Below, piece after piece: positions 10,292 through 29,307 of a stretch of DNA of 53,116 bases (within the stretch, counting starts at the first letter, position 1; each line of letters opens with the position of its first letter). The stretch comes from Parcubacteria group bacterium GW2011_GWA2_49_9. Lineage in GTDB: Bacteria; Patescibacteriota; Minisyncoccia; Phycocordibacterales; UBA10002. Under the pieces are notes generated by a model. It saw only the letters and a program-made list of their open reading frames with translations, was not told where the DNA came from and ran no database searches. A program made the translations under genes and the position numbers. Location: the NCBI GenBank assembly GCA_001004005.1, contig LCQF01000023.1:1-53116 (forward strand), written 5' to 3'.

Positions 10292-10709
10292 GTTCTAGCT
10301 TCTAGTTTGGAGATAAGGGAATAGAGCATCTTCATTACTTCAGTGAGCAACGACTCCACTGCTCCATATGAAAGCTTTGCGGTTTTTGATATTCGTTTTG
10401 CAATTTCTATTTGCGTCTCCAGTTCCGCGGCTGACCCGAGTGCGATGTGGAGAAAGTGGCAAAAATCCTTTTTGGTGCTGCGACAACGACCTTCCGCGAT
10501 GTTTGATGGTATGGAAACAACGGCTCGGCGCATCTGTGAGGTGAGCGCGTATCGTTCTTCATTCGGGAACCCCTCGGTGAGTTCATAAACGAGCACTGAG
10601 AGGTCTATTCCCTTCTGCCACACAATTAAGTCTTTATACGATTTGGCGACAGGCGCATTCATAATCATTTCCCTCTTACTAAAAGCTAGAACCTAAAACC
10701 TAGAAGCTA
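10278..10709. mobile_element. Inverted-repeat-flanked cassette carrying the four-helix-bundle gene (IVS-like)
   Basis: Arms are 10278-10307 (ggttctagtttttaggttctagcttctagttt) and 10679-10709 (ctaaaagctagaacctaaaacctagaagcta). They share the complementary core ttttaggttctagctt. Confidence 0.45.
10288..10668 (-). CDS. Four-helix-bundle protein (23S rRNA intervening-sequence protein family; Avd-like fold)
   Basis: YKDLIVWQKGIDL...EERYALTSQMRRAVVSIPSNIAEG...FLHIALGSAAELETQ matches the hallmark pattern of this family. Confidence 0.8.
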   Translation of the reverse strand: MIMNAPVAKSYKDLIVWQKGIDLSVLVYELTEGFPNEERYALTSQMRRAVVSIPSNIAEGRCRSTKKDFCHFLHIALGSAAELETQIEIAKRISKTAKLSYGAVESLLTEVMKMLYSLISKLEART

Positions 10710-11909
10710 TTCTTTCATCTGCAAACTCCACAACGTCTCGCTTCCCTTGTCTATAAAAACAAGAAATTTTTCATCGGAGCTAACCATCGGACGAACAAGG
10801 TCAATCGGGGAACCGCGTTTCCCGCTGATGTCGGAGATGCGTTCTGTCGTACCCGAGGAAAGAGTGATGCTCCACACCTCGTCGGTAAACGGGATGACTC
10901 CTTGATACCACGAATCGGGATAACTCCCCTGCGGAATAACTTTGGGGACTCCGCAATAAACACGGTCGCCACTCTTCGCGAAAGCGCATTTTTCCGGAAA
11001 GGTTGTGACGGACAGGTCACGCGGTTGTCCGTTCGCGTTGTTAAACAAATGTAAGCTCAATGTGGAATCGGGGCTGGCGGAATACAAGATTTCCGTCTTA
11101 ACCGGACTCATTAAGGCGGTAAGTCCCGGGATACCCCGCAGAAGAATAGAGGTTCCTCCCTGTATCGGGTCAAGCAGAAGGAGCATTCCGTCGGCAAAGG
11201 CGGAAGGTTTAGAGAGTAAGAGAATCTTGTTCTCCGATGGCCAAGAAACAAGCCATTCCTTCATCGGAGACCCCCAGAGTTTTACCCTGTTTCCTCCCGC
11301 AAGGTCACTTCGTATGCCTCCAATACCGTCACTTTCTTCCTGAAGGTAAAAGAGTGAATTTCCCGCGGGGGAAACGGTCATATCGGGAAGTCCGCGAGGC
11401 AAAAAAGTCCCCAGAAGCTGTCCATCTCCCTCCGTTGCGCTTGGTTTAATTTCTGCCGAGAAAGATTCTATGGTTTCCCCTCCCTCTCTCACATAACGGG
11501 AAACAAGAGCTGTTCCGGATTTACTCCAGAGGGCTTCATATACTTTTGAAACCGTGGTATTGGTGAGGCGAATCTCTTCGTCCCCCGCCGCCCCAATCTC
11601 ATACACATTGCCGACAGACCGTTCCTGATATCGGACAATCGCTTCCCCGCTCTTGGTCCCGAGTACCGCACCGGCCACCGGCACCTTTGATAACTGGCGG
11701 AGAATCGGCTCAAATGCCCCCGAGCTTGAAGGAGGAAGGATGGTCGGTGGTTCTGTCGTTGGCGGCAACTCTTCACCCGGGGGCGGAAACTCCCCATCTC
11801 CCCCCGAAGGAAGGGGTGTTGGGCGGAAAAAGAAGTACAGAACAATACCGAGCGCCGTGAGTATGAGCACAAGACCGAGCGCTATGAGGATTTTGGTTCT
11901 TCGGGACAT
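10707..11909 (-). CDS. Membrane-anchored protein: Pro-rich linker plus probable beta-propeller-like ectodomain
   Basis: N-terminal TM (ILIALGLVLILTALGIVLYFFF), PPxx linker, then beta-rich repeats. Last gene of the T4SS-like block. Confidence 0.55.
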   Translation of the reverse strand: MSRRTKILIALGLVLILTALGIVLYFFFRPTPLPSGGDGEFPPPGEELPPTTEPPTILPPSSSGAFEPILRQLSKVPVAGAVLGTKSGEAIVRYQERSVGNVYEIGAAGDEEIRLTNTTVSKVYEALWSKSGTALVSRYVREGGETIESFSAEIKPSATEGDGQLLGTFLPRGLPDMTVSPAGNSLFYLQEESDGIGGIRSDLAGGNRVKLWGSPMKEWLVSWPSENKILLLSKPSAFADGMLLLLDPIQGGTSILLRGIPGLTALMSPVKTEILYSASPDSTLSLHLFNNANGQPRDLSVTTFPEKCAFAKSGDRVYCGVPKVIPQGSYPDSWYQGVIPFTDEVWSITLSSGTTERISDISGKRGSPIDLVRPMVSSDEKFLVFIDKGSETLWSLQMKE

Positions 11910-11915
11910 ATAAAA

Positions 11916-13016
11916 CTATGGGGGACAGGCTGTGGAAGGATTTTCATACCCCCTTCCCGCCGCATAGGTAGCTTTCGTCTGTGGGCATCGTTTATAAAAC
12001 TCCGCTTCTGTTTGTATGGTTTGCATCCGCTTTTCCAAATCCGCAGCTTCCTCCAAGAGGCCGCTTGCCCGAAGCTTAAGCGCATCTTCCGCAACCTTGC
12101 CTTTGGCGGCCTCGATCATCCTCGTGACCACAGCATTGTTTTCCGTCTGATTTTTATTAGCTACCGTTGCTTGAGCGGCAGGCAATCCACCACTCCAAGT
12201 CCACTTAAGCGGGTTTACTAGGTCTGTCACTCCGGAAGGAAGCGAACAAGCTCCCACCCCCTGCACGCATTGCCGTATCTGCGTTCTCATATTTGTGGAG
12301 AGATAATCAACCGCCCCTTCATAACTTCTCACGGTTGTTTCCGCTACCCTTAACTTATTTATTGATTCATTGATTTGTCCCGCCTCCGCCGCGTCTTTAT
12401 AGTCCCCTTCCTCCATCCGCTTTTCAAGCTGTTCAATAGTGTCTTTTATACTCACCGCTTTTTGACTGATAGTTTGGGCGCGTTTCAAGGCATCATCCAA
12501 AAACTTATTGTATGCTTCCTCATTCGACAATGCGGGAACCACCGTCAGCCCCCTCCCCGTCAGCGCCTTCGGCACACGCTCAAACGCGAGGGAGAGGTCC
12601 AAATCCCGCCCGAGCGACGGACTGATTTGGTTCATAAAGATATAGGACGCATACACAATCACCAGCCCCCCCATCGCGCGGAGAATCATCGCCTTTCCCT
12701 CGCTATGTCCTAATATAGAGTCGGTAAAAAGGAGGGTAAATCCGCCGTTGACGATGGAGAAGACAGCGAACAGGCCGGCAAGAGCGACCCCGACATTGTA
12801 AATCGTGCGGAGATAGCGCGGGAAGCAGGTAGGAGCTCTACAAGAGGAGAATGTACCGCCCTGAAAGTCCGGTGAGGTAAATTCAGAACCCCTCACGTCT
12901 ATGGGAGCAAGCGGGACATAGTCAATACCCGTCGCCATAACGGGAGTGGCCGAAAAAGCCCAACCGGAAAAAATGATGACGGTTATGCAAAGGCTGTAGA
13001 GGGTTCGTGTGAGCAT
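11916..13016 (-). CDS. T4SS-pilin-like (VirB2/TrbC-like) membrane protein with a C-terminal coiled-coil extension
   Basis: Signal peptide, a CxxxxC pair (SSCRAPTC), then two hydrophobic helices (VGVALAGLFAVFSIVNGGFTLLF; AMGGLVIVYASYIFMN) in the pattern of T4SS pilins. Confidence 0.5.
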   Translation of the reverse strand: MLTRTLYSLCITVIIFSGWAFSATPVMATGIDYVPLAPIDVRGSEFTSPDFQGGTFSSCRAPTCFPRYLRTIYNVGVALAGLFAVFSIVNGGFTLLFTDSILGHSEGKAMILRAMGGLVIVYASYIFMNQISPSLGRDLDLSLAFERVPKALTGRGLTVVPALSNEEAYNKFLDDALKRAQTISQKAVSIKDTIEQLEKRMEEGDYKDAAEAGQINESINKLRVAETTVRSYEGAVDYLSTNMRTQIRQCVQGVGACSLPSGVTDLVNPLKWTWSGGLPAAQATVANKNQTENNAVVTRMIEAAKGKVAEDALKLRASGLLEEAADLEKRMQTIQTEAEFYKRCPQTKATYAAGRGYENPSTACPP

Positions 13017-13191: not shown

Positions 13192-14226
13192 TTATTGCGC
13201 GGCTCCCGCTTCCCCGGAGTTAAAGTCATTCTTCGCGGGGAACTCTATGGTTAATTTTCGCTCCGCGGCTTGGAACGACTTATTCTCGTCGGTGCTGTGC
13301 GTTTCCAAAAACAAGTCCGAAAAACCCGCGTCGTTTGTGGAGCGGCGAAGCGTTACCACCGAGGTGCTCTGCCCCGAAAGTGGAGCATAGTTTAATTGCC
13401 AGTCATACACGAGGTCTTTAGTTGTTTTGGTGTCCGTCTCAAAATAGTATGGAATCGCGCTGATGCGCAATTCATCGCCGGAAAGAGTGAAGCCGCCCAG
13501 AAGCGCTTTTCCGAACAGAATACCGTAGAGAGGATGTTCTTCATAAAACATAAGCCGCGGAGAAACAGGAACGACGGTAATCGTGGCATCCGCGCTCATC
13601 GTGTGGTCCGGACTTTCAACGGTGACCGAGATTGTTTTTATGTTGACGGGAATTTCACCGCGGAAGACAAACAGATTCTTCCCTTTTCCCGAAGAGTCAC
13701 CAACAACATTGTCCCCCTCTTTCCATGTGTAAATAAGGGAGCTTGCGGGCATAACTGACGCACCTGTTGTAAATGAAGGAATGGCGGCGACAAGAACAGT
13801 TCCCTGATACGGCATCAGCGCCTTTCCCTTGTAGAAGGGAGGAGTATAGCTCCCCGCTTGCCAGAGAAGATTTACTTCAGCGGGGCGAAGAGTCAAGCCT
13901 GTGGAGTAGGTATTTCCGTTTTCACCAAGAGCAATCACGCGGACATCCATTCGCTCTCCGCCCTTTCCCGCGACGACGGTAATTTTCTTTTCCCCGACAC
14001 CTCGCTTTACCACGTTATCATTCACAAACCACGTCACGTCGGAACGATTGAGGTCAATGTTATAGCTTTCCACTGAAATCACCGTCTGTTCCCCCGGGCG
14101 AGGGTGTTCGGGGAAAATAGCCATAGAAAGTTCGGTGCCGACAGAGCCGGATTGAGCAAAAAGGTCACTGGGGGACACAACGAACAGAAGCGTTAGGAAA
14201 AAGGTTACGGTAAGGATTCTGCGCAT
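13192..14226 (-). CDS. Secreted beta-rich protein (Ig-like repeat modules), function unknown
   Basis: Start at MRRILTVTFFLTLLFVVSPSDLFAQ (signal peptide). The 48 aa upstream in the ORF track overlap repeat units. Confidence 0.6.
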   Translation of the reverse strand: MRRILTVTFFLTLLFVVSPSDLFAQSGSVGTELSMAIFPEHPRPGEQTVISVESYNIDLNRSDVTWFVNDNVVKRGVGEKKITVVAGKGGERMDVRVIALGENGNTYSTGLTLRPAEVNLLWQAGSYTPPFYKGKALMPYQGTVLVAAIPSFTTGASVMPASSLIYTWKEGDNVVGDSSGKGKNLFVFRGEIPVNIKTISVTVESPDHTMSADATITVVPVSPRLMFYEEHPLYGILFGKALLGGFTLSGDELRISAIPYYFETDTKTTKDLVYDWQLNYAPLSGQSTSVVTLRRSTNDAGFSDLFLETHSTDENKSFQAAERKLTIEFPAKNDFNSGEAGAAQ

Positions 14227-14459: not shown

Positions 14460-14702
14460 ATGCTACGAACTATGACCATCATCACGATACCCAAACATTT
14501 GGCACATAAAGACCTTGTGCTTATTCCGCGGGCGGAATATGAGGAAATGAAGCGAGGATACACCCCACGCGTTTTCAAAGAAGTTGCGATGACCAAAACG
14601 CAAAAACGCGAGCTTGATGTCGCGCGGCGGGATTATGCGCGCGGCGACGTAGTTACCCTTGATGTATTACGACGGGATTTGGAGCGTAGAAATTCGCGGT
14701 AA
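14460..14702 (+). CDS. Putative antitoxin of a RelE/ParE-type TA pair
   Basis: 80 aa (MLRTMTIITIPKHLAHKDLVLIPRAEYEEMK...), overlapping the downstream RelE-like ORF. The upstream part of ORF 14337.. is repeat DNA. Confidence 0.55.
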   Translation: MLRTMTIITIPKHLAHKDLVLIPRAEYEEMKRGYTPRVFKEVAMTKTQKRELDVARRDYARGDVVTLDVLRRDLERRNSR

Positions 14703-14931
14703 AGCGCGTAAAGTGTTGAAGAAAATCCCGGCAAAGAACGCCGAGACCATTTTTGACGTAATTGAAAGTTTCAAAACCGATCCATTTAGCGGCGACATTG
14801 AGAAACTCGGAGGAGAAGTCAACGTATGGAGACGGCGCGTAGGCCCCTATCGGATTTTTTACGAAATCTATCAGCACACGCATTCTGTGTACGTGTATTG
14901 GATTGAACGTCGTGGTTCAAACACCTATTAG
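14662..14931 (+). CDS. RelE/ParE-family toxin
   Basis: WSVEIRGKARKVLKKIPAKNAETIFDVIESFKTDPFSGDIEKL...WRRRVGPYRIFYEI...VYVYWIERRG is a typical RelE/StbE layout. Confidence 0.75.
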   Translation: MYYDGIWSVEIRGKARKVLKKIPAKNAETIFDVIESFKTDPFSGDIEKLGGEVNVWRRRVGPYRIFYEIYQHTHSVYVYWIERRGSNTY

Positions 14932-14980: not shown

Positions 14981-16024
14981 TCACAGAATCTGTTCTCCCC
15001 TTTTTGCCATATCCTCTTCCATTTCCTTTTGTCGCTCCGCCTTTGCCTCCGCCCGCTTCCTCTGCCCCTCCTCTGTCTTCGGAAGCGTATCTTTTCCTTC
15101 CATTGGTTGCGCAAAACCATGCTCTTTCCTGTACTCATCCCGAACTTCCTTCTGGCGTTTCGCTTTTTCTTCGGGGGTACGCTCACGCGAACCTTCCATA
15201 GGTCGCCCAAAACCCTGTTGTTTCATATGGTCATCCAAAACCTCCTTTTGCCGTTGTTGGAACGCCGGATGTACACCCCCACCTTGTTTCTGTGTATTCT
15301 GTGTCTGCGGAGTCTGGCGGAATACCGGTTGCGCCCCGATATCCCCTTCCGGTTTCCTGGTGTTTTGCGTCCCAGCTGGTGGAGTCCCTGCCCCGCCTGA
15401 AGGTGTCTGTGCGGTAGGCGAACCTTGCCCAAGTTGTCTTTGGGCGACGGTCCCTTCCCCTGTGTCCACCCCTGCCCCCAACGGGCTTTGTTCCTCCTTC
15501 CCTTTGGCTTGCTCTGTTTTTTCCTTTTGCAGTCGTTCTTGCGCTTCCCTCGCCCCCTGCTCCACTTCTTTCGCTTTTTCCGCAACCTCCTTCATTTTTT
15601 GCTTATCAGCCCCCAACTTTCCGGCTACGTTAGCCGCCTTCCCGACCACCTTGGCGCCAAGTTCAGTTTTGGTGAGGAGGTCTTCCGCGCGGACGTTAAG
15701 AAAGATAAAGACAACCGCCGCCGTCCATGCGGGCAATGCTCCGAGAAACGGAACAAGTTTAATGAAAAACGCGACCGGGAAGGTTAGGAGGCGTTTCGGG
15801 CTCTTTATGAATGTTACACCGTGGCGTTGGAACCAAAACCAAAAGGTTAAATAGGCGAAGACCGACACAAGAGCGCTTGCAATAAGCGAGGCGGCGTTGC
15901 CGATGGCCGGAATCATATCCAGAAATTTCGCGGCCGCAATGCCCCCATCAAACAAAAGAGCCACGGCAACCATAAGCGCGAGGGTCACAAACGTGAGGGA
16001 AGGTTTTTTTGTTGCGGAAGGCAT
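14981..16024 (-). CDS. Polytopic membrane protein with a K/E/Q-rich C-terminal tail containing two GF(G/A)xPMEG repeats
   Basis: Four predicted TM helices in the first ~130 aa. Low-complexity charged tail. Lies within the T4SS-like block. Confidence 0.6.
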   Translation of the reverse strand: MPSATKKPSLTFVTLALMVAVALLFDGGIAAAKFLDMIPAIGNAASLIASALVSVFAYLTFWFWFQRHGVTFIKSPKRLLTFPVAFFIKLVPFLGALPAWTAAVVFIFLNVRAEDLLTKTELGAKVVGKAANVAGKLGADKQKMKEVAEKAKEVEQGAREAQERLQKEKTEQAKGKEEQSPLGAGVDTGEGTVAQRQLGQGSPTAQTPSGGAGTPPAGTQNTRKPEGDIGAQPVFRQTPQTQNTQKQGGGVHPAFQQRQKEVLDDHMKQQGFGRPMEGSRERTPEEKAKRQKEVRDEYRKEHGFAQPMEGKDTLPKTEEGQRKRAEAKAERQKEMEEDMAKRGEQIL

Positions 16025-16033: not shown

Positions 16034-16128
16034 GAAGCTTCTAGCTATTAGGTTTTAGGTTCTAGGACAGGCAAATCAAACGCGAGGACACTTCTTACTA
16101 GAAGCTAGCACCTAGAAGCTGAAAGCTA
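16034..16128. repeat. CTAGAAS-theme intercistronic hairpin (empty, no gene in the loop)
   Basis: gaagcttctagctattaggttttaggttctagg / ctagaagctagcacctagaagctgaaagcta. It spans from the VirB4 stop codon to 9 nt before the next ATG. Confidence 0.7.
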
Positions 16129-17946
16129 CTGTTTGCCTTCCGCCGCCTTCAATTCTTCTTTTGCCGCTTTGATGGAGAGCAGTTGCGACGGGTCGGAGGT
16201 AATAATTTGGTCTTCCGTATACGAGGCGATAACCTTTATGGCGACATGTTTTAGTCCCACGAAGAATAGTCCCTCCCCCACGTCGGATTCCAAAAGAAGA
16301 TATTTTTCTTCATCAGTCAGGTTGAAAATGGTCTGAAGCTTGTCTACCACCGTGGGCGATTGCTTCAAGAGCATTTGCATAGAGGAGTTGGTGAGAATCG
16401 GGAGCCCATATTGGGACTTAAGGAAGTCATCTACGTCTTGTGTGATGGTGGAAAGACCGAGATAGTATTTACGGCCGCGTTTCGCGAGGCCAAGGAGGAA
16501 CGAGGCCGTATCATCCGACTTCATCATCCACCATGCTTCATCAATGACCATCAGACGTTTTTTGAGCTCCTTCCTGATGGAGTTCCAGATAAAGTGCATC
16601 ACGATATACATCGCCGCCGATTTCAGTTCGTCCTCCATATCGCGCAAGGAAAAGACGATAAAGTTCGCGTTGATGTCCACATTGGACGGCTGGTTGATGA
16701 AACCAGACCACGTGCCATGCGTGTATTTTGAAAGGCGTTGCACCAGACTCTCCCCTCCCTGCATACCGGCAAGGACCAGCTCAAAGTCGGAAAGAAGCGG
16801 CGGTTCAATTTTGGAGAAATCGGAATCGGGAGTGATGTCCTTCAGCGCGTAGGTTTCGGTTATCGCGCGGTCTATAATCCCGTCTTCCTCGGCAGTGAGT
16901 CCGCCGAGGAGAATTCGGAACAGCCCCACCAAGTTGATAATGTTGGAGCGAAGCACGTCCGCGGACGATTCGTCTTCCCGAGGAGCCGCGAGTTCAAACG
17001 GATTGATATGATGCTCGGAATTAAGTGAGATATTGAAATACTTTCCTCCTGTGGCCTCGGCAAGAAATTCATATTCCCGCTCGGGGTCAATAACGATAAC
17101 TTCGGTTCCGAACATAAGAGAGCGCAAAATCTCAAGCTTCGTCATATACGATTTTCCCGAGCCACTTTTAGCGAGCGTAATTGAGTTATAGTTCTCTAGA
17201 CTGAAACGGTCAAACAAGACAAGGGAAGAGTTATGGCGGTTGACCCCGTACAAAATACCCTTGTTAGAGGTGAGGTCAAACGAGATAAACGGAAACACGC
17301 TTGAAAGCGGCGATGAATTGAGCTTGTTGTGTACCATAAGCTCGTCGTTCCCCAAAGGCGACGTGCTTCGAAAACCTTGTTCTTGCTGAAACAGCGCAGG
17401 TTTGATGATAACCAGTTTACTTTCCAAAATGGATTTGATTTCATTTTCCGTCTTGTCCAGCTCTTCTTCGGTTGCGGCATAGATAGTGAGATAAATCCCG
17501 ACATCAAACAGCTTTTCCTGCGCCTGCAGGAGGTCGTCGCGAAGCCGCTCCAAGTCCTGGTAGGCCGTTTCAAGCATTGGGTCGCGCACCAGCCCTTTTT
17601 TCTCGCGGTCGGCCATCTGGCTCTGCACCTCGGCGACTTTTTTCTGAAATTGCTTCAGCACTTTCGCGGTGTCCACCGGGTGTACGAAAATACTGATATC
17701 AAACACCTTATCCAGATTGATAATGGGAGCAAACCAACCCTCGGTAAGGTAGCGGGGATATGAAATGACGAAAAAGGTACGAGTGAACTTCCCGCTGACA
17801 TTTAAAGATTTTGGCGCGACCTTAAGCGCCGCGGGAGCGATGACGTCCTGCAGTTCAAGCTGACCCGACTGATAAATCTCCTGCGGCAAGAATTCCGACA
17901 AGTCCTTGTCGTTTTTTTTGGGTTTTAGGAAATCAAATAGCCCCAT
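16126..17946 (-). CDS. virB4: VirB4/TrsE/TraE-family type IV secretion ATPase
   Basis: Walker A LAKSGSGKSY, Walker B RLMVIDEAWWMM, LSTITQDVDDF. N-terminal ISYPRYLTEGWFAPIINLD pattern typical of Gram-positive-type VirB4. Confidence 0.85.
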   Translation of the reverse strand: MGLFDFLKPKKNDKDLSEFLPQEIYQSGQLELQDVIAPAALKVAPKSLNVSGKFTRTFFVISYPRYLTEGWFAPIINLDKVFDISIFVHPVDTAKVLKQFQKKVAEVQSQMADREKKGLVRDPMLETAYQDLERLRDDLLQAQEKLFDVGIYLTIYAATEEELDKTENEIKSILESKLVIIKPALFQQEQGFRSTSPLGNDELMVHNKLNSSPLSSVFPFISFDLTSNKGILYGVNRHNSSLVLFDRFSLENYNSITLAKSGSGKSYMTKLEILRSLMFGTEVIVIDPEREYEFLAEATGGKYFNISLNSEHHINPFELAAPREDESSADVLRSNIINLVGLFRILLGGLTAEEDGIIDRAITETYALKDITPDSDFSKIEPPLLSDFELVLAGMQGGESLVQRLSKYTHGTWSGFINQPSNVDINANFIVFSLRDMEDELKSAAMYIVMHFIWNSIRKELKKRLMVIDEAWWMMKSDDTASFLLGLAKRGRKYYLGLSTITQDVDDFLKSQYGLPILTNSSMQMLLKQSPTVVDKLQTIFNLTDEEKYLLLESDVGEGLFFVGLKHVAIKVIASYTEDQIITSDPSQLLSIKAAKEELKAAEGKQ

Positions 17947-17949: not shown

Positions 17950-18430
17950 AAAGTACCAATCAACTAATCAGAACTAATCTACTAATACCTACGAATCAGA
18001 CCAGACGATTTTGCATTAAAGTTCTCTATCCGCACTATGCGATGAGAACGAACGTAAGTACTACCAAAATTAACCAGAATACCCAGTTTAATTCCTGTGG
18101 CCTGAAGATACCTCTGGGTTTGGACAAAGTCACCACTTGGAATAAAACGCTTGGCTTTCAGTTCAAGGATAATCTTGTCCTCTATAAGAAAGTCAACAAT
18201 GTTATTTGTATCCCCAATCCTGTACTCTCTCTTGTAAATAATGCCCGCCTCCTTTAACTTTTGTTCGAGTAGGTCGGCATATTGTTTTTCCCTTGCAAAT
18301 TTTCCCACCTCATTATGGACTTTATAGCAAAGGCCGACTACATCAAACGAAAGGTCAGGATACAGTAGTCCCACCTCTTTTTTCTTATTTGCAGGTATTT
18401 GTAGATTAGTATTCATTTGCAGATTAGTTT
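17950..18430. mobile_element. Inverted-repeat-flanked cassette carrying GxxExxY-like gene 1 (ACTAATC theme)
   Basis: Arm aactaatctactaatacctacgaatcag (17970-17998) versus the complement of atttgcaggtatttgtagattagta (18388-18412). About 22 of 25 positions match by eye. Confidence 0.45.
17982..18416 (-). CDS. GxxExxY-like PD-(D/E)XK nuclease-superfamily protein
   Basis: Start at MNTNLQ.... LLYPDLSFDVVGLCYKVHNEVGKFAREKQYADLLEQKL...IVDFLIEDKIILELKAKR...LGILVNFG. Confidence 0.75.
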   Translation of the reverse strand: MNTNLQIPANKKKEVGLLYPDLSFDVVGLCYKVHNEVGKFAREKQYADLLEQKLKEAGIIYKREYRIGDTNNIVDFLIEDKIILELKAKRFIPSGDFVQTQRYLQATGIKLGILVNFGSTYVRSHRIVRIENFNAKSSGLIRRY

Positions 18431-19080
18431 TAACTTTCTTGCACGGTCTTCTCGGTTTCCCCCGGGTTGAACAATTGATAAAAGACATCAACAACCTCTT
18501 CGGTTCCAAGTTGCGCCACCCGAACACCGGTCCGGATGAGTCCTTGTTCCACGACGCTGACGCGCTGTTCAAGCTGGGTGCGGTTTTCCTCAAAGCCCTT
18601 CGGCCCCTTTTCGGGAGAAGTATTCTTTGCGCCAAATCCCTCTTTTAGTTTCATCGCCACCCCTCCCCCACTTGCGGAAAGTTGGACGATGGCGGGAGAA
18701 TACGGAACGACGATAAAGAATGTTTTATTCATAATATTCGTTCCCTCCGTAAATTTTGTGACGAAGCCGATATATTCACGCGTCTGGAGCTTCAGTAATT
18801 CATTTTTCTGATTCTTCGCGCGTTCTTCCAGAATCGCGATGTATGGTTTGATATCAAACCGTCTGGACTGCACAATAATTTCCACGGAGAAATCAAGCGA
18901 ATTGAGGAAGTTTTGAAACTGCGAAATAATCGCCGCCTGGTTATCCTCGGATTTCAAGGCGAAATTTATGGACGACGCCATAAGTATGGCGCGTAATCCG
19001 CCGTCTTTCAGGATGACAATGCCATCCCGTATTTCACGGATTTTGACGAACTCCTGCGAAGCCTTTGATGCTATGGCCAT
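18430..19080 (-). CDS. Stand-alone VirB4-N-terminal-domain-like protein
   Basis: IREIRDGIVILKDGGLRAILMASSINFALKSEDNQAAIISQFQNFLNSLDFSVEIIVQSRRFD resembles the N-terminal domain of Gram-positive VirB4 homologues (recalled pattern, not searched). Confidence 0.5.
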   Translation of the reverse strand: MAIASKASQEFVKIREIRDGIVILKDGGLRAILMASSINFALKSEDNQAAIISQFQNFLNSLDFSVEIIVQSRRFDIKPYIAILEERAKNQKNELLKLQTREYIGFVTKFTEGTNIMNKTFFIVVPYSPAIVQLSASGGGVAMKLKEGFGAKNTSPEKGPKGFEENRTQLEQRVSVVEQGLIRTGVRVAQLGTEEVVDVFYQLFNPGETEKTVQES

Positions 19081-21863: not shown

Positions 21864-23153
21864 TTAAGCGACGATACCATAACGTCCGAACGGCTGGGTC
21901 TTCTCGGTCATTGGGGGAAGACCCTTCTCCGCGCGATATTTGTTAATCTTCTTCATTACTGGAGCCTCCATTGGGTCTTTACCTTTTGCCTCTGCGGCGC
22001 CTGGGCCCGAACCCCCGTATTCGCGCAGACGGCCGTAGATGGAGGGGTGCGAACGAGCGTCAGTACGTCCCACGATAGCTTTGATGATTTCATACCAATC
22101 CTGCAATTCAGGGCTTATTTCGTTGAATGGAATAAAACTTCCACCTGCCATATTTACGAACCAAGAGAAAATGTTCGCGTTCTTTTTGGTCATATCCCGT
22201 TTACCGAGAACGTCGTTCTTAAATTCCCGTATAAAAAACTCCACCATCGGTATTTTCACATCCAAGTCGCGTTTACTGTAGAACTGAAGTTGGTTGACGT
22301 CCAAGTTTCGCATCACTACCCAGAAATTTCTGAACATTCCCGACATTCCCGTGAACTCGTCGTCGGCAAGGTTTTGAGACACTTGGTCGTACATCTTCAG
22401 ACCGGCCTTAAAGCGGATATTATAGGCCTCGTTTTTGTCTACGGTATCGTAGATTGGTTCGTCTTTCGGGTCGGCAAATTTCGTTCTGTGTGTTTCTATG
22501 AGGTCTTGGTACCTCTGTGAGATGCTTTTGTCACTGTCCTTTCCATACGACTCACCATCGTCATCCTTCCACTTCCCCGGCCAGTCCCATGTCGCGAAGA
22601 ACTCCTTCTCCCCCTGTTTCTTCAGCCGCTCGTTGGCATCCTTCCGCAACTTGTCCATAGCCTCTTTCTGGTGTTTCGCGATTTCTTTACACACGTCCGG
22701 ATTAAAGCCCCACGTCAGGTCGGCGCTATCAAGCACGTACTCGCGTTTCTTGGTACGCGCGACGTCCTCCTTAAACCGCATATCAAATTTGTCGCTATTA
22801 CGGACCCGTTTCCACGCCCCATACATCGTTGTTTGGGTAACCGTTTCAACGTCAAAGATGTCCTGTGCGTACCGGTACCAGCTTTCAATTTCCGTGATGT
22901 CCTCCCCCATCGCGCGCAGGGTTTTACGAAGTCCGGGAGCAACTTCACCAAGCCCCGCTTGTTTTGGCACCTCTATCCTGTCCCACTCACCAGACGCATA
23001 TCTCCTTTCACGCTCCTCCCGCTTAGCAGCCTCTATTTCCTCTTTTGTTTTCGCAATTTTTTTCTGCAAGCCGCGGACCTCCTCCTGGATTTCTTGTATC
23101 CGTTTCGTCTTTTCTTCTTCCTGTGTGGGAACTTTAATTGTTTCGGTTGCCAT
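21864..23153 (-). CDS. Hypothetical cytoplasmic protein with an N-terminal coiled coil (T4SS-block member)
   Basis: 429-aa ORF, no TM, no motif I recognise. Tightly packed between T4SS-like genes. Confidence 0.55.
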   Translation of the reverse strand: MATETIKVPTQEEEKTKRIQEIQEEVRGLQKKIAKTKEEIEAAKREERERRYASGEWDRIEVPKQAGLGEVAPGLRKTLRAMGEDITEIESWYRYAQDIFDVETVTQTTMYGAWKRVRNSDKFDMRFKEDVARTKKREYVLDSADLTWGFNPDVCKEIAKHQKEAMDKLRKDANERLKKQGEKEFFATWDWPGKWKDDDGESYGKDSDKSISQRYQDLIETHRTKFADPKDEPIYDTVDKNEAYNIRFKAGLKMYDQVSQNLADDEFTGMSGMFRNFWVVMRNLDVNQLQFYSKRDLDVKIPMVEFFIREFKNDVLGKRDMTKKNANIFSWFVNMAGGSFIPFNEISPELQDWYEIIKAIVGRTDARSHPSIYGRLREYGGSGPGAAEAKGKDPMEAPVMKKINKYRAEKGLPPMTEKTQPFGRYGIVA

Positions 23154-23191: not shown

Positions 23192-24028
23192 CTAGTCTTC
23201 TTTGAGCACCTTCTCCAGTCTTCTAAATAGCTCTTCCAGTGTGGACGTTTGATCTCCAAGCACCTTTTGAAGCGCGGGCGCGATGTTCTCAAGTGCCGCA
23301 GTCTGTTTGTTTTCTAGCTTTTGATACGTAAGCATGTTCTTGCGGTACCGCTCGTTTCTATCGTCAACAAGAAGACCTTTCTGCTTCAGTCGGTGTGTTC
23401 TGTTGTGGAAGAACTCGTGCTTCTCTTCTTCGGTTAAGGCGTGTTCATCATCTCGTATGGCCACCGCGTGGCTTGTCGGCATATATTCGTAATCCACCAT
23501 CGCTCTGTTGTTGAGGAAGTCATTTTTGGGCGTCAGTTCGGCGGCTTCTTTCGGAGTGATGTGCGCCCACGCGTGCGAAATGATTTGCGCGAGCTCGCTC
23601 ATCTCCGTACTGTGGTCTTTGTTGAATGTCGCGAGTAGTTTTTCCGCCTTTGATAACTCTTCTTCCGCCGCCGCCAGCTTCTTGTATTCAGGAGAAAGGG
23701 CTTCTTTTGCCTTAGCGGCCTTTTCTTGCAGGGCGGTGTCGGCCGGGTTCTTGGCAACCTCTTTCTGTACGGCTCGGAACGTTTTCCAGTCTTCGTCCTT
23801 CTTTTTTTGCTCGGGCGTCGGCCCTTTTGCGTCAGAGAGTTTCTTTTCCTCCTCGGTCTTGGAGCGCGCCCCCTGGGTCTTCCTTTGCCTTTCTAATCTT
23901 TTCCTCCAACGCGGGGGCATTGGCCATCTTGACCAAGTCTTTAGAAGCTTTCGCAGCCTCCAGCTCTTTCTCCATCGCCTCAATATCTTTCCCCACTTTC
24001 TCAAGATTTTTCTGCGCTTCGTCAACAT
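23192..24028 (-). CDS. Hypothetical protein; probably the frameshifted C-terminal continuation of the VirB6-like ORF
   Basis: Overlaps 23832..26381 by ~197 nt. Removing one C from the C5 run 23869-23873 reads ...KAKEDPGARSKTEEEKKLSDAKGPTPEQKKK... continuously. Confidence 0.5.
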   Translation of the reverse strand: MLTKRRKILRKWGKILRRWRKSWRLRKLLKTWSRWPMPPRWRKRLERQRKTQGARSKTEEEKKLSDAKGPTPEQKKKDEDWKTFRAVQKEVAKNPADTALQEKAAKAKEALSPEYKKLAAAEEELSKAEKLLATFNKDHSTEMSELAQIISHAWAHITPKEAAELTPKNDFLNNRAMVDYEYMPTSHAVAIRDDEHALTEEEKHEFFHNRTHRLKQKGLLVDDRNERYRKNMLTYQKLENKQTAALENIAPALQKVLGDQTSTLEELFRRLEKVLKED

Positions 24029-26381
24029 TTTTCTGGTCGGCTGGGTCTGGTTTTTTCGCCTTCTCTGCTTCCAGCTTTGTTTGTGCCAACGTCACCGCGT
24101 CTTCTGCCAGCTTTATGGCATTTCGCTGGTCCTGCGTAAGACCCGCTGTCTTGGCGGTCTTCAGCTCATCTTCCGCAGTCTTAATGCGTGCTTGGTGGTC
24201 AGGTTTGATTTCTTCCACCTCCGTAAGCTCTTCCTTTTTCGTCTTGAGCTCTTCCTGCAAGTCCGTCACTTTTTGGGTATTTTCCGGTGTCGGATTATTT
24301 TTTGCGTCCGCCTCCGCTTTCTCAAGGGATTTCTGGCTCTGTGCCACGGCTGCTTTTTTCTCCTCAATCTTTTTCTGCTGGTCCGGCGGGAAAGCCTTCG
24401 CCTCGGCAAGCGCTTTCTCCTTTTCTCGCACGGTCTTCTGTTGTTCAGGCGTTAATCCAGCCTTCGCGCCCTCAATCGCCTCTTTTTGTTTCGCCACCTC
24501 CTTCGTCGCATCTTCCTTTCCCGTTTCAAGATGTTCTTCCTTCTCGTGAAGCGGGTCAAGTTTCGCTCCCGCTTGCCGCGCTTTTGTTATATTACCGATG
24601 ACATGACGTTTCGATGCCCTTTCTTCGTCCTCCTCATAAGCCTCCTCAAGCGACTTCCCTCCGATATTTGCGTGCGCGAGTGCTCCCGTCGTTACTCCAC
24701 GCACCGCCTGCCCGATAAAGGTGTTTCCAAGTTTTGTCTGTCCAAGTCGTTCTTCCATATAGCGAGGGTCCATAAACTGACCTACGGTGCGCACGGCAGT
24801 GAGTTTTTCCTGCGTCTTCTCTCCCGCAGCGTTTATCCCCTTTCCAATTCTCGTATCCTTAAAATTTCCAAAGACTTTGTTATTGAGTAGTCTTGAATTC
24901 ACCAGTTTCTGCATCCCTTTTCCGATATTTCCTCCACCCTCCACTGCTGTTGATGGCAGTTTGATAAGACCCCGTGCGCCGGCGCTCGCAACACCAATGG
25001 CGCCGCCTTTTATCTTCTCCCAGCCAGCCATTGCCATATCGCTTCCTTTCGCGCCGAGGGATTCGGCGACGACAAGACATCCGACCATCAAGCAAATCAG
25101 AATGACGAAATTAAATATTATAGCGATGCTATTCGTCCCCGTGCCGGTAATAGCGGAGGCAAAACCTGCCGTGTTAAAACTCTCTTGAAACGCGGGAGCG
25201 TTGATGGTTTTGACGACGACATAGGCGAGCGCGAGATACAGCGGGGCGAAAAACGCCTGGCTCCAGAGCTTGCTCCACCATTGGTGCGCCATACCCGACG
25301 CCCCCGGCAAAATGAGCCCGACGAAGGCAAGTGGCGAAAGCATCATCAGCATAATGAGCGTAATCGCGCGATAGATAAACATAATCGCCGCGGCGAAAAA
25401 CACCCACGCCGTCACGATGATAAAGAGCGAGCCGAAGAGGCCGATGAGAATGATGTTCGTGAACGAGAGAGGCGTCTTGGTTGCTCCGGAGGCGGCCGCA
25501 CTCTGGAGATAATTGTCAGTGTCAAGCCCCGTCTGCGTCCGGTCATTTGTGTTATAGAGGGTTGAAAGTTTGAGACCATACAGGAACGATTCGGAAAGGC
25601 CACTATCGTAATCCCCTTCTTTCCCCGGCTCCACAATCAGCGAATAGAAGTGGAGCGCGGCGACGTTGGACACATCCACCACCGCTTTGGTGATGAAGAG
25701 CGAAAAGTTCATAAAGAGCGCGACAAGCACCATCTGTGCGAGAAGCCCCCACGCTTTTTTGCCGTTATCGCCGATACCGAGGGTGATGGACATACCGCAC
25801 CAGAGCGCGACGAAGATAAAGACGATATTGGCGAGGTCACGCAGAACTTTCCACCCGATGTCCACGACAGGGAGCCTTTCCAAAAGAGTATTGAGGTTCA
25901 GCGTATAGTGGAGCGTCATATTAAGGAGCACGCCGGCAATCCACAGGGTGCGAGCCGACACCCACATCGCGAAGTTCATCACCTGTGCGACGCATCCGTT
26001 GAAGTTGAAACGAAGCCCTGTCATTCCGCCAAAACAGGTCATTTGAGCCGCTTGGTCATCTTTCAGTTGATTCGCCGCCACGGTTGCCGCGCTTTCTTCC
26101 GTTGCGATTGGCTGGCTTCCCGGAGCTCCTCCGGGAGTAGCGGGAGCAAATACCCCCGACGGGTCATACCCTAAATCGCTCGGCTTATCCGCGGCAGCGG
26201 GTAGCGTTGCTGGACCGCCATAGTTACCAGTTTCGGGGTTAAATTCATATGGGTCAGTAGGAGGATTAAAGGTCGTTGCCTGAAGGATGGCCGGTCCCAC
26301 CAGCATCCACGCGAACCCTCCGATGAAGACGGAGATGAAGAGCGTCGCGATATGAAGTTTTTTGGTTCGGAGGAAGTGCAT
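23832..26381 (-). CDS. VirB6/TrbL-like polytopic membrane protein with a long K/E-rich coiled-coil tail
   Basis: N-terminal TM, ~100-aa ectodomain, about 6-8 TM helices (aa ~130-480), then ~370 aa of charged coiled coil. Confidence 0.6.
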   Translation of the reverse strand: MHFLRTKKLHIATLFISVFIGGFAWMLVGPAILQATTFNPPTDPYEFNPETGNYGGPATLPAAADKPSDLGYDPSGVFAPATPGGAPGSQPIATEESAATVAANQLKDDQAAQMTCFGGMTGLRFNFNGCVAQVMNFAMWVSARTLWIAGVLLNMTLHYTLNLNTLLERLPVVDIGWKVLRDLANIVFIFVALWCGMSITLGIGDNGKKAWGLLAQMVLVALFMNFSLFITKAVVDVSNVAALHFYSLIVEPGKEGDYDSGLSESFLYGLKLSTLYNTNDRTQTGLDTDNYLQSAAASGATKTPLSFTNIILIGLFGSLFIIVTAWVFFAAAIMFIYRAITLIMLMMLSPLAFVGLILPGASGMAHQWWSKLWSQAFFAPLYLALAYVVVKTINAPAFQESFNTAGFASAITGTGTNSIAIIFNFVILICLMVGCLVVAESLGAKGSDMAMAGWEKIKGGAIGVASAGARGLIKLPSTAVEGGGNIGKGMQKLVNSRLLNNKVFGNFKDTRIGKGINAAGEKTQEKLTAVRTVGQFMDPRYMEERLGQTKLGNTFIGQAVRGVTTGALAHANIGGKSLEEAYEEDEERASKRHVIGNITKARQAGAKLDPLHEKEEHLETGKEDATKEVAKQKEAIEGAKAGLTPEQQKTVREKEKALAEAKAFPPDQQKKIEEKKAAVAQSQKSLEKAEADAKNNPTPENTQKVTDLQEELKTKKEELTEVEEIKPDHQARIKTAEDELKTAKTAGLTQDQRNAIKLAEDAVTLAQTKLEAEKAKKPDPADQKNVDEAQKNLEKVGKDIEAMEKELEAAKASKDLVKMANAPALEEKIRKAKEDPGGALQDRGGKETL

Positions 26382-26625: not shown

Positions 26626-26655
26626 ATTGCGCACATTTTCGTTTTATCTTTCATA

Positions 26656-29307
26656 TCATTGTACCGTGAACTCGGCCGTTGTCGTCCCGACCACTTTTTC
26701 TGTGGCTGTCCCCGCGTCGGTAACCGCGTTAATAACAATCTTGAACGGAAGGTTAGTCGTTGGCGTTCCCTTCACCATCAGCTGTATCGGACGGGTATTT
26801 CGCAGTACCAAGTCCTCCGCGAACAGAAGCTCGGCCAGAGGCTCGGCAGGCGTGGCGTTTAGCGTGGCGTTCAGAGCACGCGCGTCGGCGGTGTAGTCTA
26901 TGCCCTTTTCCGCATCAAACTCAATCATCGTCTCGGCTTTGGACGTGCCGTCAATAGCATAGGTAAAGGTGAGACTGCTAAAGTTACTGAAGAAATCGGT
27001 AGGCGTTTTGTCATACGGCGTCTTGGTGCCTTCTATGTCATTGCAAGCGGTAAACTGTTGTGTGCACCTAAAATACCTCGCGAGGAAGGAAACCTTGTCC
27101 TGCGCCTTATTCGGGAGGAAGGAAATGTTATCCCACGTGAAGGTGTCTCCTTCATATCCGATGGTTAAGGCTGTACTTCTTGCCGTCCAGTCACGTGGCT
27201 GGCTCATAGTTTTCTGCGCGGGAGATACGGTGAACGAGAACGGTACAACCTGTGTCGGAGTGTTGCCCGACGTATCTAAACGCGTCGCCTTGCCGATAAC
27301 CTCCACTTCGGCGATGGCAAGAGTCATTGATGCAGGGTCCCCTGTTTGGGAAATTCTAAGGAAACGTCCTTTGACTGTAGGTGCGGGAAGGGGGACTTTG
27401 AAAACGGATTCCAGTACTCGTCCCCTGTATAGGACGAGAGGGGTTCCACTATCGGCGACAAGCGTTACTTCCACGTTTCCGTCTCGGAGCGAATTGCGAT
27501 ACTCCGATTGAGTCGCATCCCCCCTTGCCCAGTCTCCACTAAGGCGGTATATATTTATTTCGCGTATTTCATTGACAATCCACTCTCTCTTTTTCGTCAC
27601 CCTCTCTGTCTCTAAATCAACCTCCCACCACTCGGATGTGCCCGCTTTGGTACAGGAAAAAGTGCCATAATGGATGCTTCCCGATGACGGATTTCCATCC
27701 ACGGCTTGTTGTGGGAACGAATCAACGGACCTTACTGCTGGCATCCCGCACTCTCCTTGCGATTGTGTGGCAAATTTCCCGGTTGAAATATTTCCTTCAC
27801 TACTTTGAGGTTGAGGCGGTGGCGGCGCACCTGCCCCGGGCGTTACCGGTGTCCCATCGCCCAACACCCCGCGCCCGCCCGCGGCGGCATCGTCAATCAG
27901 CTTATTCCACGCGTTTGCGCACCCCGCCTTGACTGCGGCGAAATAGGCATTCCACGTCGTAAAACCGTCTCTCGTCACGGGAACAAGGTCAGCCACGCCG
28001 ACTTTTCTGTACATTGCCGGCACAAACGGGCTGGTATCTCCCTTAACAACACCAGCCGTTTTACCCACACCAAGGTTGTCCGTCCATACCTGCATACTTG
28101 TCCAGTTTGGGGGAGCGGGTATGCTGTCGTCCGGCTCATAAAATCCGCTTTTTTCAGGCTTTTCTACGGTCGCCGGATAATACCGCAGATGGCAGTCAAT
28201 TCCCTCTGGAGTCTTGGCGTCAACGGCGCCGACTCCCTTAGTCGGGTCGGTGAAAAGCGCGTCTGTGGCACTCTGTCCGCTGTCCGTAATGCTCCCTTTG
28301 CTCGCGCCGAGAAGTCCGCCAACACCGGTCATTGCCTTCACCAAAAGCTGGTTAATGAGTGCGCCGACCACCTCGTCAATCTCGCTCGCGAGTTCCAATT
28401 CGTGGAAGGTGGTGGCGAGTGCGCCGGTCGTCTGGCCTTCAATAATGCTTCCGGGAGTTTTAATCGGACCTTCTTTGATGCAGGGGCCTTTTCGTATCAC
28501 CTTGTTATTTGCGCCTTTGATATCCGGCCCCCACTTTTCACAGCTCCGCCACGATTTGAATCCTTTTCCCCAATCCAAAAGCTTGATTTGTTGGCCGGTC
28601 GCCGTCGTAATACTCGCGCTCATAATACTCGTTGCTCCGATGTAGGCCCCGTATGGATTGTTTGATTGTGTACCGGCGATATGCACCCACCTACTCAAGT
28701 TTCCCGAGCCTACGGTACCCGACACGAAGCTATCATACGCGCCCTGCACGTTGGCAATGACGTCCGAAAGACGGCAGGTAACCGTCTCTCGGGTACGGAG
28801 CGACATATTGAGGCCGAGCGCGAATTTGATGTTGAGCTTAAACGGAGCGCACAAAAGCGGGGAAATGTCCTGAATGATTTTGCCGATAGTCTGGTCGGCG
28901 ACATCCGAGAAGAATCCTTCGGGGTTGGTGATAAATGAGGGCGAGCCTTCAAACCCGGTGTTAATCCAGTTGACGATTGATTGCGTGAAGGTATGTAAAA
29001 GGGTCTTCGCGATAATCTTCGTCAGCGACTTCATAAAACAAGCCGACCACTCGTTGCTTGCCGCCGAACCCGCACCCTGCGTATTAATGATATTACCGCC
29101 CGCGCTGTTCGTACCCACTGATATAACTGCGTTGACTGCGTTGGCAGTTGTCCCGATGCCCGTTGTTACGGCTTTCGCCGAGAAACATTGCGCAAGCGAA
29201 ACCAACGCTTCAGCTTTTTCGGGACGCGCGAAAAGAAGCGCAGGTATAACTAGCGTTATAGCCAAAAACCCGAGGAGCATCTTTTTAGTCGCCTCTCTCA
29301 CGTCCAC
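26656..29307 (-). CDS. Large secreted/surface protein with an F5/8 type C (discoidin)-like domain
   Basis: N-terminal TM/signal. Central segment AVDGNPSSG...TSEWWEVDLETE...INIYRLSG...GRFLRISQ...LAIAEVEVIGK matches the discoidin/fucolectin-like pattern. First gene of the T4SS-like block. Confidence 0.65.
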   Translation of the reverse strand: MDVREATKKMLLGFLAITLVIPALLFARPEKAEALVSLAQCFSAKAVTTGIGTTANAVNAVISVGTNSAGGNIINTQGAGSAASNEWSACFMKSLTKIIAKTLLHTFTQSIVNWINTGFEGSPSFITNPEGFFSDVADQTIGKIIQDISPLLCAPFKLNIKFALGLNMSLRTRETVTCRLSDVIANVQGAYDSFVSGTVGSGNLSRWVHIAGTQSNNPYGAYIGATSIMSASITTATGQQIKLLDWGKGFKSWRSCEKWGPDIKGANNKVIRKGPCIKEGPIKTPGSIIEGQTTGALATTFHELELASEIDEVVGALINQLLVKAMTGVGGLLGASKGSITDSGQSATDALFTDPTKGVGAVDAKTPEGIDCHLRYYPATVEKPEKSGFYEPDDSIPAPPNWTSMQVWTDNLGVGKTAGVVKGDTSPFVPAMYRKVGVADLVPVTRDGFTTWNAYFAAVKAGCANAWNKLIDDAAAGGRGVLGDGTPVTPGAGAPPPPQPQSSEGNISTGKFATQSQGECGMPAVRSVDSFPQQAVDGNPSSGSIHYGTFSCTKAGTSEWWEVDLETERVTKKREWIVNEIREINIYRLSGDWARGDATQSEYRNSLRDGNVEVTLVADSGTPLVLYRGRVLESVFKVPLPAPTVKGRFLRISQTGDPASMTLAIAEVEVIGKATRLDTSGNTPTQVVPFSFTVSPAQKTMSQPRDWTARSTALTIGYEGDTFTWDNISFLPNKAQDKVSFLARYFRCTQQFTACNDIEGTKTPYDKTPTDFFSNFSSLTFTYAIDGTSKAETMIEFDAEKGIDYTADARALNATLNATPAEPLAELLFAEDLVLRNTRPIQLMVKGTPTTNLPFKIVINAVTDAGTATEKVVGTTTAEFTVQ

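Follow-up and report, generated by a model that had tools for sequence, protein, structure and literature searches.

The window analysed here is a complete contig of 53,116 bp from Parcubacteria group bacterium GW2011_GWA2_49_9 (locus tags UY50_C0023), and it carries a block of genes for a type IV secretion system (T4SS) on its minus strand (10707-29307). This block is almost certainly a vertically inherited T4SS of the Patescibacteria clade, descended from monoderm conjugation machinery of the MPF_FATA type and organized in the arrangement known from Paceibacteria. It encodes a VirB4 ATPase of the MPF_FATA type, TrsD, PrgI, VirB6 and a VirB2-like pilin, neither a relaxase nor a type IV coupling protein (T4CP) gene is linked to it, and it lies on the chromosome by dnaA, dnaN, rnpA and ksgA; it shares all of these features with the Paceibacteria arrangement described recently, from which it shows no essential difference (PMC12102498). 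What the window has in addition are two PDDEXK_3 genes, a ParE pair, a DUF559 gene, a split VirB6, a gene for a 429-amino acid (aa) protein and open reading frames (ORFs) inflated by repeats. Taken as a whole, a Patescibacteria-clade T4SS serving host interaction is very likely the best explanation for the block.

The system as such has already been published in papers from 2023 to 2025, and the window is a typical Paceibacteria example and no new kind; the block, noted in an initial annotation made from the DNA letters alone, can thus not be regarded as a new observation (PMC12102498, PMC10633639). Quinonero-Coronel et al. (2025, Microb Genom) found VirB4 in 2417 of 3035 Patescibacteria genomes, where it makes up one monophyletic group within MPF_FATA; its commonest partner is TrsD, PrgI, VirB6 and VirB2-like pilins are encoded nearby, relaxases occur in only about 100 genomes, T4CPs are rarely found near virB4, and the Paceibacteria locus is located near dnaA, dnaN, rnpA and ksgA (PMC12102498).

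Synteny and conservation of the locus

The order of the genes is fixed and runs uvrD, ksgA, (proteins with TSP3-type repeats), the family of an 883-aa protein, VirB6, (the family of a 619-aa protein), PrgI, TrsD and VirB4, followed by (a protein with four transmembrane (TM) segments), an Ig-like protein, (the pilin-module protein), a propeller protein, [jag, yidC, rnpA], dnaA and dnaN. Synteny across related genomes of the candidate phyla radiation, a check already suggested by the initial annotation, is extensive: this order recurs in dozens of species-level Paceibacteria genomes, and in these, too, it is bordered by the housekeeping genes uvrD-ksgA at one end and yidC-rnpA-dnaA-dnaN at the other. 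Because order and flanks recur in this way, we consider the block a vertically inherited chromosomal locus and not a genomic island or an integrative and conjugative element (ICE).

A scan for VirB4 over one genome per GTDB species yielded at least 559 relatives, of which the best 80 (75-82% VirB4 identity) were used for comparison; the proteins of the window were compared with these 80 loci by tblastn, and by phmmer in the case of the 4-TM protein. Homologues of VirB4 and TrsD were detected at all 80 loci, those of PrgI at 77, of the Ig-like protein at 75, of VirB6 at 62, of the propeller protein at 61, of the 883-aa family at 58 and of dnaA at 52, with many of the loci being truncated and full flanks available in 40-plus. 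For the cytoplasmic motor, median identities were 77% (VirB4), 59% (TrsD) and 48% (PrgI), compared with 28-32% for the exported and membrane parts (Ig-like, propeller, 883-aa, pilin and VirB6) and with 61%, 44% and 43% for the housekeeping proteins DnaA, DnaN and KsgA, respectively; the ranking of the loci by VirB4 similarity inflates the value for VirB4 relative to the other genes, which weighs against this gradient. A cytoplasmic motor more conserved than DnaA combined with fast-evolving exported parts is a pattern that fits an apparatus at the interface with a host.

According to their titles, the best 80 VirB4 relatives are metagenome-assembled genomes of uncultured bacteria, mostly Patescibacteria, Paceibacterota, Parcubacteria and Saccharibacteria (Taylor-, Zambryski-, Nomura- and Adlerbacteria among others), and plasmid or ICE records are absent from these 80; this similarity ranking agrees with the published Patescibacteria clade. 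Independent groundwater assemblies show the same gene arrangement as the window. Here, the block extends over 18.6 kb, versus about 11-12 kb in relatives, and its G+C content resembles that of the flanking genes; the conserved part probably reaches as far as 32425. All of the ORFs named in the initial annotation are present on the minus strand at the positions it gave, and its estimate that the block ends some 3 kb from dnaA (6409-7818) agrees with the measured distance of 2.9 kb.

Components of the secretion machine

All genes within the block described in the following are located on the minus strand, with the exception of one toxin-antitoxin pair. The VirB4 ATPase (16126-17946; 606 aa) matches the NCBIfam model NF045971 (VirB4-like conjugal transfer ATPase, CD1110 family) with 369.8 bits (cutoff 325; positions 173-733 of the 752 in the model), as well as the Pfam families P-loop_TraG (7.6e-25) and AAA_10 (4.5e-13), and its translation contains both a Walker A (AKSGSGKS) and a Walker B motif (VIDEAW). 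Judging from its sequence, this VirB4 is of the monoderm MPF_FATA conjugation type. Its N-terminal domain is encoded separately by a TrsD-type gene (18430-19080), whose 216-aa product matches conju_CD1110 at positions 2-118 (1e-5), VirB4_plasma at 105-241 (2.9e-11) and the TrsD model NF041427 (2e-5) and is listed in the precomputed Pfam data as PF26593 (TraC-like); searching a TrsD profile against the PDB gave no match. The presence of this free-standing protein at 80 of 80 related loci (59% identity) also bears on the idea that VirB4 was broken in two by the PDDEXK_3 gene inserted between the two genes: this was rejected, as relatives without the insertion all have the TrsD/VirB4 split, which is also found in the literature. 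The third core component is a small PrgI/VirB3-like membrane protein (19619-20026 within the ORF 19619-20083, conserved core 19619-19870), which forms a hydrophobic hairpin, matches PF12666 at 3.2e-9 (37.7 bits, gathering cutoff 27) and has a homologue at 77 of the 80 loci. The VirB4 ATPase, the separate VirB4 N-domain protein and the PrgI/VirB3-like protein had all been proposed in the initial annotation, and the three assignments hold.

The polytopic VirB6/TrbL-like protein (23192-26381) is an extended variant with a long K/E-rich tail and about six hydrophobic helices, and is represented by two ORFs in the window (23832-26381, 849 aa, and 23192-24028). The copy in the window matches only TrbL_4 (2.2e-4, below the cutoff), and TrbL matches are present in 6 of 36 syntenic VirB6 homologues and TrbL_3 matches in 17 of 94 database homologues. 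An AlphaFold2 model of residues 1-500 (pLDDT 74, pTM 0.69) was compared with the PDB using Foldseek, and the top matches were chains of the R388 TrwJ/VirB5-TrwI/VirB6 stalk (probability 1.00, E 0.011, target-normalised TM-score about 0.44-0.46); a search with the family profile against PDB sequences produced coiled-coil noise from the tail only. The ORF at 23192-24028 (278 aa) was considered as a gene of its own and rejected: close relatives have VirB6 orthologues of 1022 and 936 aa that end in a 230-aa stretch to which residues 48-277 of this ORF align (38% identity, 3e-40). By this alignment, VirB6 is a protein of roughly 1,050 aa that is split by a frameshift or an assembly problem. The break (23832-24028) is located in a K/E-rich, A-rich low-complexity stretch, and another assembly of the same organism (L083) shows undetermined residues (XXXX) at this junction; an assembly artefact is therefore likely. 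The earlier description as a VirB6/TrbL-like protein with a K/E tail can thus be retained with respect to its identity, on the grounds of the TrbL matches of relatives and the fold match to R388, but not with respect to its ORF boundaries.

The VirB2-like protein with a T4SS_pilin module (11916-13016) consists of a signal peptide and two hydrophobic helices (aa 35-139), followed by a 230-aa coiled-coil C-terminal extension. The copy in the window has no direct Pfam match. A hidden Markov model (HMM) built from 28 syntenic relatives, excluding the window copy, finds it at 1.7e-21 over aa 35-139 as the sole ORF of the window, and in the alignment of 29 sequences, which includes the window copy, PF18895 (T4SS_pilin) is matched by 26 members but not by that copy. 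Its homology to the pilin module is thus transitive, as it is recognised through the HMM of its relatives and not by Pfam directly; with this reading, the two-helix T4SS-pilin-like protein of the initial annotation is confirmed. In several relatives, the coiled-coil tail is replaced by a cell-wall hydrolase domain fused to the VirB2-like pilin module (L022:15113-15868, L028:15314-16363 and L030/L032/L033/L069); SLT and CHAP domains were identified with Pfam, and a GGTExGH-type DD-peptidase-like segment was recognised by eye in the alignment. The pilin-module family may thereby supply a VirB1-like function.

Exported, anchored and cytoplasmic members

The largest surface component is a secreted or anchored protein of 883 aa (26656-29307). 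In its N-terminal part, it has a conserved helical domain (about aa 85-340), and it further contains a lectin-type (F5/8 type C-like) region and a variable C-terminus. At the 58 loci where it was detected, its family is invariably positioned just upstream of VirB6, and it comprises 6327 clusters (50% identity) at E<=1e-3, with a PVxD-type motif following the signal peptide in the consensus. Two members of the family match DUF4141, which we take to be the N-terminal motif of TraI of conjugative transposons. Attempts to place the N-terminal domain did not lead beyond the family itself: an AlphaFold2 model of aa 1-360 from a 79-sequence alignment was of low confidence (pLDDT 65, pTM 0.36) and gave no significant Foldseek match in the PDB, the family profile retrieved only a spurious low-complexity match to Ski7 from the PDB, and an exhaustive profile search listed close members and no remote link. 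The N-terminal domain is fused to lectin-type and Ig-like domains. It is an unlikely candidate for the missing VirB5-like stalk or tip subunit; if it were one, the system would combine a diderm-style VirB2/VirB5/VirB6 stalk with a monoderm envelope, and the tip would be an adhesin binding host glycans.

Two further exported proteins are encoded downstream of VirB4. The first is a secreted protein of 344 aa (13192-14226) with an N-terminal hydrophobic segment and three Ig-like beta-sandwich repeats, found at 75 of the 80 loci, whose family profile matches the Ig-like phage protein Hoc at 0.003 and whose relatives match BiPBP_C, Ig_3 and PKD_3. The other, the last gene of the block, adjoins jag and yidC and encodes a TolB-like beta-propeller of 400 aa (10707-11909) that is anchored by a single N-terminal TM segment; it is present at 61 of the 80 loci, its family profile matches TolB at 1.5e-4, and relatives match PD40, DPPIV_N and DUF5050. 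The labels that the initial annotation had given to these surface proteins are weakly supported in the window and fare better among relatives. The discoidin label of the 883-aa protein scores 2.6e-4 here and up to 2.7e-12 among 7 of 34 relatives, the Ig-like nature of the secreted protein is consistent across relatives with the Hoc match being weak, and for the propeller, relatives consistently show weak matches to propeller families in Pfam. Between ksgA and the gene of the 883-aa protein, also on the minus strand, two paralogous anchored proteins of 310 and 344 aa with TSP3-type calcium-binding repeats are encoded (30395-32425). Each has one N-terminal TM segment, TSP3_bac matches are weak, and of the 80 loci, 30 have a homologue of the first and 19 one of the second at this position; both proteins probably belong to the system as accessory members.

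A membrane protein of 347 aa with 3-4 TM segments and a long charged tail is encoded directly downstream of VirB4 (14981-16024). It has no match to any Pfam or NCBIfam family, and homologues of its TM part are located at the same position at 40 of 80 loci. In total, one hydrophobic segment, at the N-terminus, is present in five proteins, and none in VirB4, TrsD and two further proteins of 619 and 429 aa. The cytoplasmic 619-aa protein is encoded upstream of PrgI (19998-21857); the helical domain at its centre is conserved, and its C-terminal part carries the motif RYSTDPYREPL. Matches at 41 of the 80 loci cover only about 17% of its length, the median length of the orthologues being 232 aa; most relatives have a version of about 230 aa, and the two nearest ones have versions of 532-574 aa. 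The alignment shows that the window copy was enlarged by an N-terminal domain restricted to its sub-lineage and by in-frame insertions of palindromic repeats, so that repeats are indeed present, as the initial annotation had it, but in a base protein that is smaller and conserved. The cytoplasmic 429-aa protein, encoded between VirB6 and the 619-aa gene (21864-23153), is lineage-specific: none was found at the 80 comparison loci, and only eight homologues exist among 5.8 billion proteins. The genomes carrying them are all from the closest relatives, and in each the gene takes the identical place in the T4SS, with VirB6 on one side and the gene upstream of PrgI on the other. The 429-aa protein may act as a substrate or a regulator peculiar to this lineage.

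Function of the system and alternative explanations

Evidence for the function of Patescibacteria T4SSs comes from Southlakia epibionticum, in which, as demonstrated by Tn-seq, epibiotic growth requires SEML1_0006-0019 and the pilins (Wang et al. 2023, Cell; PMC10633639). This locus likewise lies near origin genes and encodes VirB4, a TrsD-like protein, PrgI, VirB6-like proteins, VirB2-like pilins and an exported Ig-like/PEGA protein, with no relaxase or coupling protein being recognised. It differs from the block by six small pilins arranged in an array, lysozyme and cysteine-peptidase (VirB1-like) genes, DD-peptidase genes by VirB4 and an NTF2-like (VirB8-like) gene, whereas the pilin module occurs only once in the window, in a long-tailed protein, and hydrolase and NTF2-like genes were not recognised in it. 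A 2025 review speculates that the T4SS, with a possible pilus, represents a conduit between epibiont and host (PMC12857230). The T4SS of the window would probably serve in host contact and not in conjugation.

In model T4SSs, VirB4 without VirD4 suffices for pilin dislocation and pilus biogenesis. In the system described here, VirB4 and TrsD, tethered by PrgI, would supply the energy for pulling the pilin-module protein out of the membrane, and from this protein a stalk or a short filament would be built, with VirB6 as its platform. The rapidly evolving exported proteins (lectin-type, Ig-like, propeller and TSP3-repeat), placed on or beside this structure, would attach to the envelope of the host, and the channel would serve host interaction by protein export or by uptake of host material, without conjugating the organism's own DNA. 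We regard this specific combination of filament and adhesins as tentative, with at best an even chance of being correct.

The comparison with other T4SSs shows both the origin and the peculiarities of the machine. The staphylococcal plasmid pGO1 and the enterococcal pIP501 (TrsC-TrsD-TrsE, a subclass of MPF_FATA) likewise share out the VirB4 function over two proteins, a small TrsD and an ATPase of roughly 600-700 aa (216 and 606 aa in the window), and encode a VirB3-like protein upstream. In contrast to the block, these systems are plasmid-borne and equipped with a relaxase, a T4CP, an oriT, a VirB1-type hydrolase and a VirB8-like protein, and they lack a pilin; in the window, none of these genes was recognised and a pilin module is present, an oriT being recognisable only together with its cognate relaxase. 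The similarity to the VirB2-VirB5-VirB6 stalk of R388/pKM101 consists in the fold match of the VirB6 model, with its marginal E of 0.011, and in the VirB2-like pilin module; unlike R388/pKM101, the window has no demonstrated VirB5 and no outer-membrane VirB7, VirB9 and VirB10, and its VirB6 has a cytoplasmic tail of several hundred residues. The Ptl system of Bordetella and ComB of Helicobacter pylori are likewise devoid of VirD4 and relaxase and handle substrates other than their own conjugative DNA, but they belong to diderms, include VirB7-10 and show sequence kinship to the window only via VirB4, VirB3 and VirB6.

Several points weigh against a host-contact T4SS as outlined above. No VirB8-like or VirB1-like genes were recognised in the block, and only one pilin-module gene is present, whose 230-aa C-terminal extension may be incompatible with a classical VirB2 filament. 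The assignments of VirB6, the lectin-type region, the Ig-like protein and the propeller fall below curated thresholds for the copies in the window. Essentiality is known only from a Saccharibacterium with a different locus (six-pilin array, lysozyme/peptidase genes and NTF2-like protein). A helicase of the UvrD/PcrA type (33994-36192) is conserved beside the block, which does not allow a strict absence of any DNA-processing component to be asserted, and a VirD4-type protein might be encoded elsewhere in the genome, given that in most Patescibacteria genomes it is located far from virB4 (PMC12102498).

The last two points are also among those favouring a conjugative element or its fixed remnant, in which an unrecognised relaxase would act with a distant coupling protein and possibly mobilise the chromosome near the origin. 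VirB4 belongs to a conjugation family (CD1110, MPF_FATA), TrsD, PrgI and VirB6 are parts of conjugation machines, the synteny includes a helicase of the PcrA/UvrD type, and T4CP homologues are encoded elsewhere in most Patescibacteria genomes (PMC12102498). This explanation is highly improbable. The scanned ORFs of the 53-kb contig yielded no match to families of relaxases, VirD4, VirB11 or integrases, nor to a coupling protein of the VirD4 or TcpA type; an adjacent set of relaxase, coupling protein and integrase, as would be expected for an ICE, is thus absent from the contig, as is any repeat-bounded island. Furthermore, dozens of species share identical housekeeping flanks without variation of the boundaries, and the G+C content is like that of the neighbouring genes. 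In addition, relaxases were found in only about 100 of 3035 genomes and are not linked to the Patescibacteria clade, and the T4CP of S. epibionticum is non-essential while its T4SS is essential (PMC12102498). The view of the initial annotation that the apparatus is host-encoded and non-conjugative is therefore well founded on synteny, on the lack of mobility genes on the contig and on the literature, and only its statement that all DNA-processing components are missing has to be restricted, on account of the helicase, to relaxase, VirD4, VirB11 and integrase.

The lack of relaxase and coupling protein on the contig would also be compatible with a machine for the uptake of DNA or of another nucleotide source, as in ComB of H. 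pylori or the archaeal Ced system, in which VirB4-driven import of DNA from the host or the environment would feed a nucleotide-auxotrophic organism; this is the main alternative. VirB4 does show a weak partial match to CedB (1.2e-9), but it is confined to the P-loop region and reaches only 37 bits at a cutoff of 700, and neither ComEC and ComEA nor CedA-like partners (CedA/CedA1/CedA2) are present in the block. ComM (39480-41075) and UvrD are encoded on the same contig, and the T4SS of the class ABY1 co-localises with comF, recG and radA (PMC12102498); ComM, however, is a general recombination helicase located 10 kb away. Moreover, deletion of comEC in S. epibionticum leads to loss of competence, but the cells stay viable, whereas the T4SS is essential; transformation thus does not explain this essentiality (PMC10633639, PMC12857230). 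The many lectin-type and Ig-like surface proteins also suit cell contact better than the uptake of free DNA, and we consider an uptake machine quite unlikely. Least probable of all is a decaying locus that has lost its function in this organism through pseudogenisation. The broken frame of VirB6 (23832-24028), the inserted genes (two PDDEXK_3 genes, toxin-antitoxin pair and DUF559 gene) and the palindromic repeats within ORFs might be taken as signs of decay; yet the core ORFs are all intact and highly conserved (VirB4 75-82% identical to relatives), the insertions are intergenic or in frame, and the break in VirB6 coincides with the low-complexity stretch that reads XXXX in the other assembly, where an artefact is likely.

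Inserted genes and dispersed repeats

Several genes within the block are not part of the secretion machine. Two small PDDEXK_3 (GxxExxY) genes are located between TrsD and VirB4 (17982-18416; PF13366, 2.6e-19) and between PrgI and TrsD (19153-19560; PF13366, 1.1e-23), the former being absent from its position in most relatives. On the plus strand, a ParE-type toxin (14662-14931; ParE_toxin 2e-6, 28.7 bits, cutoff 23) and an upstream antitoxin of 80 aa form a toxin-antitoxin pair (14460-14931), which is also present in other assemblies of the same organism and has a counterpart at none of the 80 related loci. The DUF559 gene is an insertion specific to the organism. In the initial annotation, the co-directional block was described as interrupted only by a plus-strand toxin-antitoxin pair; this pair is now identified as ParE-type, and the two PDDEXK_3 genes inside the block have to be added.

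Small genes of the PDDEXK_3 and 23S_rRNA_IVP (four-helix-bundle) families recur in the gaps around PrgI, TrsD and VirB4. In the window, such genes are found at 17982-18416, 19153-19560 and 10288-10668, and the order is PrgI-PDDEXK-TrsD-PDDEXK-VirB4, compared with IVP-PrgI-PDDEXK-TrsD-VirB4 in L087 (13010-14274) and IVP-PrgI-IVP-TrsD-PDDEXK-VirB4 in L088 (8533-10932). To judge from these arrangements, the PDDEXK_3/IVP genes behave like mobile cassettes aimed at a highly conserved operon. The peptide strings NHNANTAN and TNLQMNTNLQ recur at the C-terminus of yidC (9670-9700), upstream of PrgI (about 19950-20060) and at the start of a PDDEXK_3 gene (about 18380-18420); this recurrence, seen in translations, suggests a further short DNA repeat tied to the PDDEXK_3 cassettes.

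A dispersed repeat of about 50 nt consists of two adjacent 7-bp hairpins with the consensus AACAACCCCCGCC-[variable stem-loop]-GGCACCCCCTTTnnTAAGGGGGATA. Copies are located at 13096, 14295, 14395, 20188, 20593, 20693, 26410, 29371, 29534, 29724, 30219, 30284, 30360, 31887, 32041, 32257, 37721 and 37940, with weaker ones at 13134, 29577, 31253, 31989, 33194 and 44991; the 18 matches compare with 0 expected by chance. The four copies that were folded gave z-scores of -2.6 to -6.1, and stem variants are compensatory. The element is found in intergenic regions as well as in frame within genes, where it adds 36 aa to KsgA and 51 aa and about 30 aa to the 619-aa protein, and orthologues of relatives bear it at different positions. 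Its exact core is limited to this organism, apart from a single occurrence in the close relative L087, and no Rfam family matches it. The double-hairpin element resembles the Rickettsia palindromic elements; the hairpins in the window are a dispersed repeat family and not a single oriT.

Chromosomal setting

To the left, the block is flanked by dnaN (4919-6019), dnaA (6409-7818), rnpA, yidC and jag, and to the right by ksgA (33005-33892), the UvrD/PcrA-type helicase and an M23/LysM peptidase. From about 10.3 kb to 48.8 kb, the genes point almost wholly in the direction of the minus strand. Near 48.8 kb, beside tRNA genes, both GC skew and coding strand change sign, and further DnaA boxes are found at 49771 and 49791. 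DnaA-box-like sites also flank dnaA on both sides (6220-6497), where 5 of 22 sites with at most one mismatch are located, and a perfect box is present at 8102. This switch in skew and strand near 48.8 kb on the one hand and the DnaA boxes at dnaA on the other are compatible with more than one position of oriC relative to the block. A scan of the block for promoters and terminators stayed at chance level, and Rfam detected only three tRNAs in the window. Outside the block, an ORF6N/Rha-type gene is represented by two adjacent ORFs (39153-39443 and 38746-39090), which match the first and the second half of the Pfam model; this gene (38746-39443) is probably frameshifted or a pseudogene.

Implications for epibiotic bacteria

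About half of the conserved locus has no assigned role, namely the 883-aa family, the Ig-like protein, the TolB-like propeller, the 4-TM protein and the cytoplasmic protein encoded upstream of PrgI. These proteins belong to a system of particular interest, as the Patescibacteria T4SS is among the few machines that have been tied experimentally to the epibiotic lifestyle of a huge and largely uncultivated radiation.

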